In this document: piece after piece, positions 7,769 through 10,560 of the stretch
How positions within the stretch are numbered: the stretch's first letter is position 1
How the letters are laid out: each line of letters starts with the position of its first letter
IMG/VR virus record: IMGVR_UViG_2531839583_000011
Coordinates: 1-24,912 of that record
Reading direction: 5' to 3' (one strand)
DNA length: 24,912 nt
From: a virus
Taxonomy: Duplodnaviria; Heunggongvirae; Uroviricota; Caudoviricetes
Program-made: the position numbers and the translations under genes
Notes under the pieces: generated by a model
The model's input: the letters and a program-made list of their open reading frames with translations, nothing else
The model's database searches: none
Told to the model about the DNA's origin: nothing

Positions 7769-8188
7769 TTAAGAGGCTTTTTGTTTTTTCTTTCGTGCTA
7801 ACTCTTCGTAAATTGCATTGTACTTCTGTTTTTTCTCCTCAAGAGTTTTTAAAAGTTCATCTGTCTCACTGTCAGGGAGCTCGTCCAGAAGGTCAATGAT
7901 GATTTTTTGTCTTGGATTTAACTCCTGATAGAAACGTATCTGTCCACTTTCTTCTGTATCCTCTCCCAAAAGATAGGTTGGTGTTGTTCCAATGAGTGTT
8001 GCTAATTCCCTTAATTTCTCTCGGCGAGGAATTGTTTCACCATTAAACCATTTGCTAACCGCTTTTGGTGTTAATTTCATTCGACGGGCAATTTCTGCCT
8101 GCCTTCCATGTTGTTCATAACCAGCGTTTTCACAGGCTAGCGCAAGCCTACTGGCGAACTCTTTACGCGCTTTATCTTCATGAACCAT
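7769..8188 (-). CDS. racR: Prophage repressor, XRE-family HTH (cI functional analogue), 139 aa
   Basis: HTH segment QAEIARRMKLTPKAVSKWFNGETIPRREKLRELA; divergent from cro-like gene across an operator-containing intergenic region. Confidence 0.75.
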   Translation of the reverse strand: MVHEDKARKEFASRLALACENAGYEQHGRQAEIARRMKLTPKAVSKWFNGETIPRREKLRELATLIGTTPTYLLGEDTEESGQIRFYQELNPRQKIIIDLLDELPDSETDELLKTLEEKKQKYNAIYEELARKKKQKAS

Positions 8189-8213
8189 AAGTTCAATGAT
8201 ATTCGCTCTTGAA

Positions 8214-8251
8214 TGTACTGTCAGTTCTGTTATAGCATGTACTCAAAGTTC
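8214..8251. promoter_or_regulatory. Putative right operator pair (OR) within divergent PRM/PR region: TGTACTgtcAGTTC at 8214-8227 and TGTACTcaaAGTTC at 8238-8251
   Basis: Two direct copies of TGTACT-N3-AGTTC, starts 24 bp apart, between racR start (8188) and ydaS start (8268); candidate PR -35 TTGAAT at 8209-8214 and -10 TATAGC near 8231-8236. Confidence 0.5.
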
Positions 8252-8267
8252 ACATTGTGAGGATGAT

Positions 8268-8522
8268 ATGAACCAGAAAACACTTGAAGATGTAATCAAA
8301 ACTGTTCGCGTTTCTGTTGTGGCCGACGTTTGTGGTGTCAGCCAAAGAGCAATCTACAAATGGATGGATAACGGAAAATTGCCTCGCACAGAATATACCG
8401 GCGAAACAAATTACGCTGAAAAAATCGCTCATGCATCAAACGGATTATTTTCTGCCGATGCAATTTTAACTATTGGCAGAAATAAAACTACTACGAAAAA
8501 GCTGATGGGAGTTGATTCATGA
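8268..8522 (+). CDS. ydaS: Cro-like/YdaS-like small HTH DNA-binding protein, 84 aa from MNQKTLEDVIK
   Basis: ATG at 8268 preceded by GAGG; HTH segment VADVCGVSQRAIYKWMDNGKLP; stop overlaps ydaT start (ATGA at 8519-8522). Confidence 0.65.
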   Translation: MNQKTLEDVIKTVRVSVVADVCGVSQRAIYKWMDNGKLPRTEYTGETNYAEKIAHASNGLFSADAILTIGRNKTTTKKLMGVDS

Positions 8523-8941
8523 AAATCAAGCATGAGCACATCGAATCAGTGTTGTTAGCCCTGGCAGCCGAAAAAGGGCAGGCGTGGGTCGCTAACGCAA
8601 TTACTGAAGAATATCTGCGCCAGGGGGGCGGCGAATTGCCCCTGGTACCAGGCAAGGACTGGAACAATCAGCAGAATATCTATCATCGTTGGTTGAAAGG
8701 TGAAACGAATGCGCAAAGGGAAAAAATTCAGAAACTGATCCCTGCGGTTCTGGCAATTCTTCCTCGCGAGCTGCGTCACCGACTCTGCATCTTCGATACC
8801 CTGGAACGCCGTGCATTACTGGCGGCACAGGATGCACTGAGTACGGCAATTGATGCGCATGATGATGCAGTCCAGGCCGTTTACCGTAAAGCACATTTCA
8901 GCGGCGGCGGTTCTCCTAGCGATTCTGTCGTAGTGCATTGA
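8519..8941 (+). CDS. ydaT: YdaT, 140 aa (MKIKHEHIESVLLALAAEKGQAWV)
   Basis: Sequence and length match recalled Rac YdaT; position right of the cro-like gene. Confidence 0.85.
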   Translation: MKIKHEHIESVLLALAAEKGQAWVANAITEEYLRQGGGELPLVPGKDWNNQQNIYHRWLKGETNAQREKIQKLIPAVLAILPRELRHRLCIFDTLERRALLAAQDALSTAIDAHDDAVQAVYRKAHFSGGGSPSDSVVVH

Positions 8942-8954
8942 TTGAAATTAATCG

Positions 8955-8976
8955 TACCGAACTGTTTTGTTCGGTA
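8955..8976 (+). other. Stem-loop TACCGAAC-tgtttt-GTTCGGTA after ydaT (no clear U-tract)
   Basis: Perfect 8-bp inverted repeat with 6-nt loop read directly; function unknown (possible tR1-like or protein-binding site). Confidence 0.35.
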
Positions 8977-8986
8977 TCAGTTAAAT

Positions 8987-9005
8987 GTAACGCTGCGAGC
9001 GTTAC
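8987..9005. repeat. 19-bp palindrome GTAACGC-TGCGA-GCGTTAC (copy 1), just upstream of ydaU start
   Basis: Perfect 7-bp arms, 5-bp spacer; exact arm sequence recurs at 9179-9197 and 9386-9404. Confidence 0.7.
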
Positions 9006-9018
9006 AAGGTGAAAACAA

Positions 9019-9807
9019 ATGGCTTCAAACTGGATAAAGCTCGAAGTTATTACGCCGGATAAGCCGGAAATATTCAGGCTTGCTGAGATTCTGAATATTG
9101 ATCCAGATGCCGCATTAGGGAAAGTCATTCGCTTCTGGGCATGGGCGGATCAACAAATGATAGACGGTAACGCAGAGTGTAACGCTCGCGGCGTTACAAA
9201 AAGTGCAATAGATCGCATCACTTTTATGGCTGGGTTTGCTGATGCGTTAATTCAGGTTGGATGGCTGGTCGAAACTAATGGTGTGTTGTCGCTTCCTAAC
9301 TTTGAGCGCCATAACGGGAAAAGCTCTAAAAAACGGGCGGTTACAAACGAGAGAGTAACAAAAATACGAGAACTGAAACGAAAAGGTAACGCTGCCAGCG
9401 TTACAAAAACGGATCAAAAAGCGTTACCAGAGGAAGAGAAAGAGGAAGATATAAATACTTATCTCCCCCTAAATCCCCCTCGCCAAAAACGAGCGTCTAA
9501 AAAATTCGAACCGGAGGCTATCGAGCTGCCTGACTGGTTGCCGGAAACACTCTGGCATGAGTGGGTTCAGTTCAGGCAGGCATTGCGAAAACCGATTCGA
9601 ACGGAGCAGGGCGCTAACGGGGCGATACGGGAGCTGGAAAAATTCCGCCAGCAGGGTTTTTCACCTGAGCAGGTGATTCGACACAGCATCGCCAATGAAT
9701 ACCAGGGCTTGTTCGCGCCAAAAGGTGTTCGACCTGAGACGTTACTCCGACAGGTTAACACCGTCTCGTTACCGGATAGTGCGATCCCGCCAGGCTTCAG
9801 GGGGTAA
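9019..9807 (+). CDS. ydaU: Replication initiation protein, lambda O analogue (YdaU-like), 262 aa
   Basis: Position right of the cro/ydaT pair and upstream of the DnaC-like ydaV; contains internal palindromic iteron-like repeats; N-terminus MASNWIKLEVITPDKPEIFRLAEIL. Confidence 0.75.
   Translation: MASNWIKLEVITPDKPEIFRLAEILNIDPDAALGKVIRFWAWADQQMIDGNAECNARGVTKSAIDRITFMAGFADALIQVGWLVETNGVLSLPNFERHNGKSSKKRAVTNERVTKIRELKRKGNAASVTKTDQKALPEEEKEEDINTYLPLNPPRQKRASKKFEPEAIELPDWLPETLWHEWVQFRQALRKPIRTEQGANGAIRELEKFRQQGFSPEQVIRHSIANEYQGLFAPKGVRPETLLRQVNTVSLPDSAIPPGFRG
9179..9197. repeat. 19-bp palindrome GTAACGC-TCGCG-GCGTTAC (copy 2), inside ydaU
   Basis: Read directly; followed by ACAAAAA like copy 3. 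Confidence 0.7.
9386..9404. repeat. 19-bp palindrome GTAACGC-TGCCA-GCGTTAC (copy 3), inside ydaU
   Basis: Read directly; additional half-sites (GCGGTTAC, GTAAC) at 9337-9360. Confidence 0.7.
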
Positions 9808-9813
9808 CTGACC

Positions 9814-10560
9814 ATGAAAAATATTGCGGCAGGCGGCATTCTTGAACGTATCCGCAGACTGGCCCCGCCACATGTAACCGCCCCATTCAAAACGGTAGCG
9901 GAGTGGCGCGAGTGGCAACTTTCCGAAGGCCAGAAACGTTGTGAGGAGATCAACCGTCAGAATCGTCAGTTGCGGGTGGAAAAAATTCTGAATCGCTCTG
10001 GCATCCAGCCATTGCACCGCAAATGCTCGTTTGCGAATTACCAGGTGCAGAACGACGGTCAGCGATACGCGTTGAACCAGGCGAAATCTATCGCTGATGA
10101 ACTGATGACCGGGTGTACAAATTTTGCGTTCAGCGGAAAACCTGGTACCGGAAAAAACCATCTGGCGGCGGCTATCGGGAATCGCCTGCTGAAAGATGGC
10201 CAGACAGTGATTGTGGTTACCGTGGCTGATGTCATGAGTGCTCTACACGCCAGCTATGACGACGGGCAATCAGGCGAAAAATTTTTGCGGGAACTGTGCC
10301 AAGTGGATCTGCTGGTTCTTGATGAAATTGGCATTCAGCGCGAGACAAAAAACGAGCAGGTGGTGCTGCACCAGATTGTTGATCGCCGGACAGCGTCGAT
10401 GCGCAGCGTGGGGATGCTGACAAACCTGAACTATGAGGCGATGAAAACATTGCTCGGCGAGCGGATTATGGATCGCATGACCATGAACGGCGGACGCTGG
10501 GTGAATTTTAACTGGGAGAGCTGGCGTCCGAATGTCGTCCTGCCAGGAATTGCGAAGTGA
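9814..10560 (+). CDS. ydaV: DnaC/IstB-like AAA+ helicase loader (lambda P functional analogue), 248 aa
   Basis: Walker [18 protein letters not shown], Walker B LLVLDEIG; GGGGG Shine-Dalgarno before ATG; same length as recalled K-12 YdaV. Confidence 0.85.

Follow-up and report, generated by a model that had tools for sequence, protein, structure and literature searches.

Dyad-symmetric sites and a polypurine tract inside an initiator gene mark a candidate replication origin of a Rac-family prophage and its relatives

The window considered here, 24,912 nucleotides of DNA from a virus of the Caudoviricetes (IMG/VR record IMGVR_UViG_2531839583_000011, positions 1 to 24,912), represents a prophage of the Rac family inserted at ttcA; in an E. 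coli chromosome with 99.9% identity to it, the Rac genes intR, xisR, rcbA, ralR, recT, recE, racC, kilR, sieB and ydaF lie upstream. Where Rac has ydaU, the window encodes a replication initiator, and copies of a 19-bp palindrome, GTAACGC-N5-GCGTTAC, lie just upstream of and inside the initiator gene. These dyads, the lone half-sites around them and a purine-rich tract that follows the last dyad make up a candidate replication origin, whose parts are listed below together with the initiator gene and its downstream neighbor.

8987-9005, no strand assigned: dyad 1, GTAACGC-TGCGA-GCGTTAC, an exact match in non-coding DNA
9019-9807, plus strand: replication initiator gene (262 aa) in ydaU's position; its product consists of a winged-helix-like N-domain (aa 1-125) and a YdaU-type C-domain, joined by a disordered linker (aa 125-149)
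9167-9173, no strand assigned: extra left-type half-site GTAACGC, 12 bp upstream of the left arm of dyad 2
9179-9197, no strand assigned: dyad 2 (cluster A), GTAACGC-TCGCG-GCGTTAC, an exact match in codons 54-60
9339-9344 and 9355-9359, no strand assigned: degenerate core half-sites GGTTAC and GTAAC upstream of dyad 3, called with low confidence
9386-9404, no strand assigned: dyad 3 (cluster B, candidate origin core), GTAACGC-TGCCA-GCGTTAC, an exact match in the linker-coding region
9421-9427, no strand assigned: lone right-type half-site GCGTTAC, 23 bp downstream of the right arm of dyad 3 and directly before the polypurine tract
9429-9462, plus strand: polypurine tract AGAGGAAGAGAAAGAGGAAGA (9429-9449) followed by AT-rich TATAAATACTTAT (9450-9462), a candidate DNA-unwinding element
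9463-9480, plus strand: C-tract motif CTCCCCCTAAATCCCCCT (CTCCCCC-TAAAT-CCCCCT), adjoining the junction with the YdaU-type C-terminal module
9814-10560, plus strand: ydaV, encoding a DnaC-type helicase loader that presumably acts together with the initiator (NCBIfam PRK12377, E 6e-152, 504 bits; DnaC PRK07952, E 1e-91; PHROG 50)

A pattern search of the whole 24.9-kb window for GTAACGCNNNNNGCGTTAC returns three exact matches (8987-9005, 9179-9197 and 9386-9404), which bears out the three perfect 19-bp palindromes of the original prediction at all three coordinates. No match is expected, none occurs in any of 100 dinucleotide-preserving shuffles of the window, and no further dyad is gained in the window when three mismatches are allowed. 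The half-site 7-mer GCGTTAC occurs ten times, as compared with 2.2 expected copies and a shuffle maximum of 7, and eight of the ten copies fall within the 440 bp between 8987 and 9427. Two lone half-sites, at 9167-9173 and 9421-9427, had not been listed before; the partial half-sites reported around 9337-9360 do exist but are weak, because only the 5-bp core is retained, and other E. coli alleles have GTTAC in place of the second. The copies had also been called dispersed rather than tandem. This description is incomplete: the plan of the family consists of two clusters about 207 bp apart, each made up of a dyad and extra half-sites at steps of 11-13 bp, and the second cluster adjoins a conserved (AGAGA)n tract.

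The reach of this plan emerges from a one-genome-per-species scan, which yielded 80 loci of about 4.5 kb each (78 distinct) from Enterobacterales, Pseudomonas, Xanthomonadales, Burkholderiales, other Gammaproteobacteria, Planctomycetota and Verrucomicrobiota, including Akkermansia. With a dyad called at a match to at least 11 of the 14 arm positions, the equivalent of dyad 2 lies at about +148 of the gene in 73 of the 78 distinct loci, and that of dyad 3 at about +350 (+337 to +412) in 74; the modal spacing of the two intragenic dyads is 207 bp, there are hardly any matches elsewhere in the loci, and no exact copy of the motif lies outside the initiator gene in the 80 loci. In enterobacterial members with a four-codon NAEC insertion, which is seen in these members only and of which the half-site at 9167-9173 forms a part, dyad 2 is shifted from +148 to +160. 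The family consensus of the dyad, as read from the position frequency table, is GTAACGCTnnnAGCGTTAC, with three central positions free. The initiators of the complete phages TL-2011b, ZX5, CP2, PAN70 and epsilon15 are members of the same N-domain family: in TL-2011b and ZX5 (64-66% amino-acid identity) the dyads are at +148 and +357, in Xanthomonas phage CP2 (48% identity) a dyad is at +148, and the initiator gene of Pseudomonas phage PAN70 carries TAACGC-N5-GCGTTA.

The original prediction had considered that the motif might prove common genome-wide, and this is not what is found: when IMG/VR was scanned without preselection, 187 exact palindromes turned up, 165 of them no more than 700 bp from a gene of the N-domain family, and several of the remaining ones belong to family loci truncated by a contig end. 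Four other IMG/VR loci (L177, L194, L223 and L212) have exact palindromes without a recognizable family gene, set among extra GTTAC or GCGTTAC half-sites in apparently non-coding DNA; such sites could belong to origins of initiators that are more distantly related but recognize the same sequence.

Two of the dyads lie within coding sequence, and the repeats could in principle be a by-product of a repeated peptide, N-A-x-x-V-T, or of chance. The reading frame does turn both dyad 2 and dyad 3 into N-A-x-x-V-T, and the motif DGNAxxVTK is conserved in the protein, yet dyad 1 is non-coding and in 16 loci dyad 3 is read in another frame to give a different peptide. The equivalents of dyad 3 are distributed over the reading frames as 60, 15 and 1 loci; being present in all three frames and encoding different peptides, dyad 3 is therefore a DNA element rather than a peptide motif. 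The synonymous positions are fixed as well. In the equivalent of dyad 2, Val is encoded by GTT in 70 of 80 cases (37% elsewhere) and Asn by AAC in 72 of 72 (63% elsewhere). Within the arms generally, wobble bases are fixed; the 5-bp spacer is variable. A peptide-motif artefact is thus ruled out by the reading frames and the wobble positions, the shuffles that give no match speak against chance, and the probability left to either is negligible. To judge from these comparisons, the constraint acts on DNA, not on protein.

A different explanation for selection on nucleotides is that the palindromes form hairpins in mRNA or single-stranded DNA, for instance structures for RNase III or attenuation, or signals for priming, and are not duplex sites. 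Each dyad can make a stem of 7-8 bp, the 5' UTR folds better than its shuffles (z = -3.45), dyad 3 is terminator-like on the minus strand, and in the specificity variants described below both arms change yet stay complementary. However, among 133 distinct site sequences, 129 deviations from the consensus break pairing and 7 are compensated; such one-sided change points to recognition of each half-site and speaks against a hairpin maintained by selection for pairing. The arm sequence is near-invariant across phyla, with none of the drift under preserved pairing that a hairpin would allow, unpaired lone half-sites are conserved and co-vary with the arms, and terminator-like hits in the scan of 8100-9900 (4, with 2.2 expected) are not above chance. 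A hairpin in RNA or single-stranded DNA was rejected on the excess of uncompensated over compensated changes and must be considered very unlikely.

When the loci are aligned on dyad 3, the elements downstream of it follow in a fixed order: dyad, 4-16 bp, a lone GCGTTAC(C), a polypurine tract built of AGAGA pentamers, a short AT-rich stretch and, often, C-tracts. The arrangement of a dyad, 4-16 bp, GCGTTACC and (AGAGA)n recurs across the family, and many loci also have direct xTAACGx half-sites every 12 bp upstream of the cluster B dyad. Most of the 78 loci have an (AGAGA)n tract, as a rule beginning 12-13 bp behind the dyad; on average, the segment 20-70 bp after the start of dyad 3 has a GC content 0.17-0.20 below the locus mean and 81% purines on the coding strand. 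The tract codes for a conserved linker peptide, L-P-R-E-E-K-R-R-E-D, and its codon usage is telling. In the ten codons after the LP motif, a segment defined at the protein level, all 90 of 90 Arg codons are AGA, as compared with 9 of 381 (2.4%) in codons 1-110 of the same genes, from which it follows that purine-only DNA is what is selected. Each of the three frames of (AGAGA)n encodes cyclic permutations of R-E-E-K-R. The reading frame of the tract is for this reason uninformative, and with a pentanucleotide repeat, the linker peptide would survive frameshifting indels around the origin unaltered. Cluster B (9339-9427) and the tract (9429-9462) together correspond approximately to codons 107-148, and the structural model is disordered at residues 125-149, between the folded domains. 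No DnaA boxes are found within the module. Written as (AAGAG)n, the repeat of the tract has been described as triplex-forming in Drosophila (PMC6316130).

In distant loci the C-tracts take the form CCCCCC-N3-5-CCCCCC, at times followed by GGGGG, and come directly after the AT-rich tract. The C-tract encodes P-L-N-P-P and marks a mosaic junction; it is common to K-12 ydaU (L001:2414-2432) and distant family loci. It may serve as one more origin element, in the way of the inverted repeat that lambda has on the right side of its AT-rich region; alternatively, it may be a hotspot of recombination.

Five lineages of the family have exchanged the recognition sequence for another. The half-site is GTCCGC/GCGGAC in epsilon15, GTCACG/CGTGAC in L161 and L156, GTTGCG/CGCAAC in L165 and GTAGAC/GTCTAC in L166. 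In the variant lineages other than L156, both clusters consist of 2-6 half-sites at steps of 11-14 bp in the pattern -> -> <- <- or close to it; in L156, only one dyad and a single half-site match the variant. Every copy has switched jointly, including the lone half-site that precedes the tract, and (AGAGA)n is unchanged. On the protein side, T109 and V113, which lie in the basic helix after the invariant F-E-R-H-N-G (residues 104-115 of the initiator correspond to window 9328-9363), are replaced in all five variant lineages, while T..RV is kept in GTAAC lineages. This correlation, drawn from only five lineages, suggests that helix 109-124 is a DNA-reading element.

The original prediction had the dyads as dyad-symmetric initiator-binding sites of an origin in or next to the initiator gene, as in lambda, and conservation across phyla, linkage to the N-domain, co-variation and the AT-rich polypurine tract all strongly favor this idea. 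As the sequences have it, the elements exist, are under selection at the DNA level, are tied to the N-domain and change together with specificity; from this we infer binding by the initiator, melting at the tract and origin activity. The dyads are very probably specific binding sites of the initiator encoded by the gene that carries them, and the whole assembly of dyads and adjacent polypurine/AT-rich tract is likely to be the replication origin of the prophage, placed within the initiator coding sequence.

The same sites might instead be merely autoregulatory operators of the initiator-loader operon, bound by the initiator or by another repressor, with the origin elsewhere. Dyad 1 ends at 9005 and abuts a Shine-Dalgarno-like AAGGTG (9006-9011), 14 bp from the ATG of the initiator gene at 9019, the intragenic dyads could act as roadblocks, and many initiators, those of iteron plasmids being familiar cases, use their own sites in this way. 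The distribution of the dyads does not fit well, however. A dyad at -32 to -44 from the ATG is found in 10 of 14 enterobacterial loci (L090-L103) and in none of the 66 others, whereas the two intragenic clusters are universal; restricted to Enterobacterales, the upstream dyad is therefore a lineage-specific third site, either an auxiliary origin site or an autoregulatory operator. Control of the operon would also leave unexplained the half-site arrays spaced one turn apart and the conserved succession of a lone half-site and an (AGAGA)n/AT-rich tract with its 90 of 90 AGA codons. Furthermore, a promoter scan of 8100-9900 found no sigma-70-like promoter near dyad 1 and none overlapping any dyad. 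Thus, dyad 1 had been correctly placed next to a ribosome-binding region, but the promoter postulated at the same place did not materialize. Altogether, an exclusively autoregulatory role appears unlikely. Under the favored origin reading, dyad 1, beside the ribosome-binding site, may additionally let the initiator limit its own synthesis.

Another phage protein (the CII-like YdaT, the Cro-like protein, the repressor or YdaV) or a host factor could also bind the dyads. The immunity genes of the window lie upstream of the initiator gene, as follows.

7769-8188, minus strand: helix-turn-helix repressor gene
8268-8522: Cro-like gene
8519-8941: CII-like ydaT

In favor of YdaT, ydaT ends 46 bp upstream of dyad 1, and YdaT tetramers bind inverted repeats; in prophage CP-933P, the operator bound by the YdaT tetramer is TTGATT-N6-AATCAA (PMC9986795). 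This operator differs from the dyads. A perfect copy, TTGATTCATGAAAATCAA, is located at 8512-8529, where it overlaps the ydaT start codon at the junction of the Cro-like gene and ydaT, and a copy with two mismatches, TTGATTGAAATTAATCGT, is located at 8938-8955, overlapping the stop codon of ydaT, some 30 bp ahead of dyad 1. A perfect operator elsewhere in the window implies that YdaT has its own sites. The companion genes vary, too: among the 80 dyad loci, YdaV-like genes are found in 17, YdaT-like genes in 8, repressor-like genes in 7 and a Cro-like gene in 1. YdaT was rejected as the dyad binder on the grounds that its operator is different and sits elsewhere and that ydaT-like genes accompany only 8 of 80 loci. 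A host factor common to E. coli through Planctomycetota, with variant sites in single phages, is implausible, and no DnaA boxes lie nearby. Binding by any protein other than the initiator is consequently most improbable. The locus comparison ties the dyads to the N-domain; no other nearby gene is a constant companion.

Two side observations concern the same stretch of DNA. Since a YdaT tetramer can hold two duplexes, one can imagine a loop across ydaT. Between ydaT and dyad 1, a perfect hairpin with an 8-bp stem, TACCGAAC-TGTTTT-GTTCGGTA, occupies 8956-8975; its left arm reads GCCGGAT or GCCGGAG in other E. coli alleles, a change that would preserve most RNA pairs as G-U, and it has a terminator-like score on the minus strand reminiscent of the lambda oop terminator region.

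The initiator matches PHROG 2509, "replication initiation protein", with an E-value of 4.7e-88 over residues 1-262 (profile positions 1-277 of 277), the family name being an annotation and not an assayed function. It has no Pfam match at E<0.01. K-12 YdaU scores 92 bits on DUF1376 (PF07120) and lambda O scores 123 bits on Phage_rep_O (PF04492); the window protein matches neither model. In profile comparisons, the N-domain family has no similarity to lambda O (hhalign probability 0.1%) or to DUF1376, and the family profile aligns with residues 164-262 of K-12 YdaU only (hhalign probability 95% over aa 141-240), placing the start of the YdaU-type C-terminal part at about aa 141. The gene order, a YdaU-type C-domain and then ydaV, is that of the K-12 YdaU module, and the downstream gene is, as had been predicted, a DnaC-like loader by its match to PRK12377. 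The designation "O-like gene ydaU" therefore holds for position and role but not for homology: the C-terminal part alone is YdaU, and the N-domain is neither O nor DUF1376.

The N-domain (window 9019-9393) has no Pfam or NCBIfam model and no relative with a solved structure, but its family is large, with 6,485 cluster representatives at E<=0.001 and 4,013 at E<=1e-10 in a library clustered at 50% identity. An AlphaFold2 model begins with two helices, followed by a low-confidence loop (residues 47-60) that coincides exactly with the stretch encoded by dyad 2, a winged-helix-like unit of helix-turn-helix and beta hairpin (residues 61-91), the basic helix 109-124, the disordered linker 125-149 and a helical C-domain. 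Structure searches with this model gave no significant match, only weak winged-helix look-alikes, and Pfam and structure searches found no homology to plasmid Rep proteins or DnaA. The C-domain is YdaU-type in the window and DnaT-like in many relatives. As the tract accompanies the N-domain irrespective of the type of C-domain, reading of the tract by the N-domain or the linker, or selection for a physical property, is more likely than reading by the C-domain.

The mosaic build of the initiator is most apparent in comparison with K-12 Rac, which shares with the window the prophage family, the ttcA attachment site, the order intR...kilR, sieB, ydaF and a matching ydaV. Rac has been reported to carry an origin, oriJ (PMC3945230). 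From about 9550 of the window to the start of ydaV, the initiator gene is 96% identical in DNA to K-12 ydaU; for its first ~530 bp, no counterpart was found in K-12, which differs in its DUF1376 N-domain, in its other immunity genes and in lacking the GCGTTAC half-site throughout 5.3 kb of the ydaU region. K-12 Rac was for this reason dropped as a direct comparator for the motif and revealed the mosaic instead. At the place equivalent to cluster B, K-12 ydaU has inverted repeats of its own, TGTTCAAACA and TGTTTGAACA (L001:2290-2365), followed by an AT-rich stretch and the C-tract CCCCCCCTAAATCCCCCCC, where homology with the window restarts. The inverted-repeat cluster as a whole (L001:2286-2370) comprises AGATGTTCAAACA, AGGTGTTCAAACA, GATGTTGAAG, GGTGTTTGAACA and TGATGTCAACA, and these repeats are candidate iterons of the classical oriJ. 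A different N-domain, separate repeats and homology that resumes after the AT-rich tract together imply that the N-domain, its sites and the tract are exchanged as one cassette. The lambdoid O/ori region has long been described as exchanged in such a fashion.

The gene is also met in altered form. In E. coli HNSQ2209 (L004:1600-2730) it is split into two annotated pseudogene pieces about 370 bp apart, the N-terminal one of the window type and the C-terminal one annotated as DUF1376-domain-containing, and all three dyads are retained. Among 5,426 complete E. coli genomes, 1,423 match the fragment, about half of these full-length.

Two circular replicons carry the family initiator. Plasmid pE16EC1016-8 (CP088505.1, L293/L294), 52 kb in size, consists of a complete Mu-like phage inserted into a ~15-kb TL-2011b/epsilon15-like remnant. 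The initiator gene of the remnant contains both dyads and the tract, and apart from transposases the molecule has no other replication candidate. The 41-kb Pusillimonas "plasmid" NC_015459.1 is a complete temperate phage, again with the family initiator as the only non-transposase replication candidate. In both CP088505.1 and NC_015459.1, high-scoring dyads are confined to the initiator gene. The support that these replicons lend to an origin is weak, because either record may be an excised circle.

Among known systems, the closest parallel is with lambda ori and other lambdoid origins (phi80, 82, P22 gene 18). In these, the origin is likewise placed inside the initiator gene, in the part that codes for the inter-domain linker; the sites are dyad-symmetric and about 19 bp long; and the iterons are followed by a purine-biased AT tract, ACAAAAGAAAAAAGAAAAGATTATT, and an inverted repeat, in the same order as in the window. 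In lambda O, too, the N-domain and its sites form an exchangeable specificity module, the C-domain pairs with a helicase-loading partner, and the helicase loader is encoded by the next gene downstream. By contrast, no homology is detectable between lambda O and the window initiator (no Phage_rep_O match; the hhalign value given above), enterobacterial members of the window family have a third, upstream dyad, and the tract, which in lambda is AT-rich, is a specific pentanucleotide repeat. Lambdoid iterons differ from phage to phage, whereas the recognition sequence of the window family is near-constant across phyla. The best reading is thus an origin that would work like lambda ori without being homologous to it.

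More distant parallels concern the use of repeats. The Bacillus phage SPP1 has its oriL inside gene 38, which encodes the replisome organizer G38P, with repeated binding boxes and an adjacent AT-rich region; the likeness lies in an origin embedded in the coding sequence of its initiator, the differences in the protein family, the direct-repeat boxes and the Gram-positive host. DnaA, through DnaA-trios, reads a short repeat in the unwinding element. Iteron plasmid origins, served by winged-helix initiators such as RepA, pi and TrfA, resemble the window in having repeated initiator sites beside an unwinding element, with the initiator gene near. They differ in that their repeats are direct and lie outside the rep gene, while the window has dyads and half-sites inside the gene; the tandem 17-22 bp direct repeats outside rep that distinguish iteron plasmids are not present in the window. 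Some Rep proteins read a specific strand or short repeat in the unwinding element (PMC4081077). Such reading by Rep or DnaA resembles the succession of a lone half-site and (AGAGA)n in the window family.

The origin might operate as follows. Dimers of the winged-helix-like N-domain would bind the 19-bp dyads, and more subunits would be added on the flanking half-sites, one helical turn apart, to form an oligomer on cluster B (9339-9427). Cluster A (9167-9197), some 207 bp away, and the enterobacterial upstream dyad (8987-9005) would join or modulate this nucleoprotein complex. Strain or direct strand-specific contacts would then open the (AGAGA)n/AT-rich tract at 9429-9462, and the C-terminal domain and the DnaC-type YdaV would bring the host DnaB.

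Several points weigh against an origin at this place. A gene with sites within it and immediately ahead of it could equally use them for autoregulation. The characterized lambdoid origins have four tandem iterons within about 100 bp (85 bp in lambda), while the window family has two clusters about 200 bp apart, one of which lies within the coding sequence of a folded domain. Both "plasmid" records could represent phage DNA that has circularized on excision, and not plasmids that are stably replicated. The comparison within the E. coli population is of little power: across 57 distinct alleles, each arm is altered in no more than one or two sequences, but the surrounding DNA is itself too alike, and a few misaligned outliers blur the picture; this comparison was not relied on. 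Finally, full-text searches (oriJ/Rac, ydaU/ydaV, motif strings, Stx-phage replication), with older subscription papers outside their reach, found no description of the motif or of the family's origin and no paper that reports binding, melting or replication for either.

A bolder proposal, which at present seems doubtful, is that these loci belong to an undescribed and very widespread class of phage origin, in which a near-universal 19-bp dyad and (AGAGA)n are written into the initiator gene. The repeat would be read sequence-specifically, perhaps as single-stranded DNA in the manner of DnaA-trios, by an N-domain without a known homologue, and T109/V113 would form a code with GTAAC; the dyad would dictate N-A-x-x-V-T and the repeat would dictate the linker L-P-R-E-E-K-R-R-E. 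If this were true, the simplicity of the recognition code would allow origin specificity and incompatibility to be predicted for thousands of prophages.

If confirmed, the assignment made here would define the origin and an initiator-DNA recognition code for a family of about 6,500 clusters (50% identity, E<=0.001), which would drive replication in temperate phages and prophages of E. coli and Shigella, epsilon15-like Salmonella phages, phages of Pseudomonas and Xanthomonas, and prophages of Akkermansia and Planctomycetota, and a one-line sequence signature would locate the origins in such prophages. It would provide a clear case of DNA-binding sites that constrain the sequence of their own binding protein, as well as a natural series of specificity variants for the study of initiator-origin co-evolution, and it would explain why the Rac family swaps the N-terminal half of "ydaU" as a unit.

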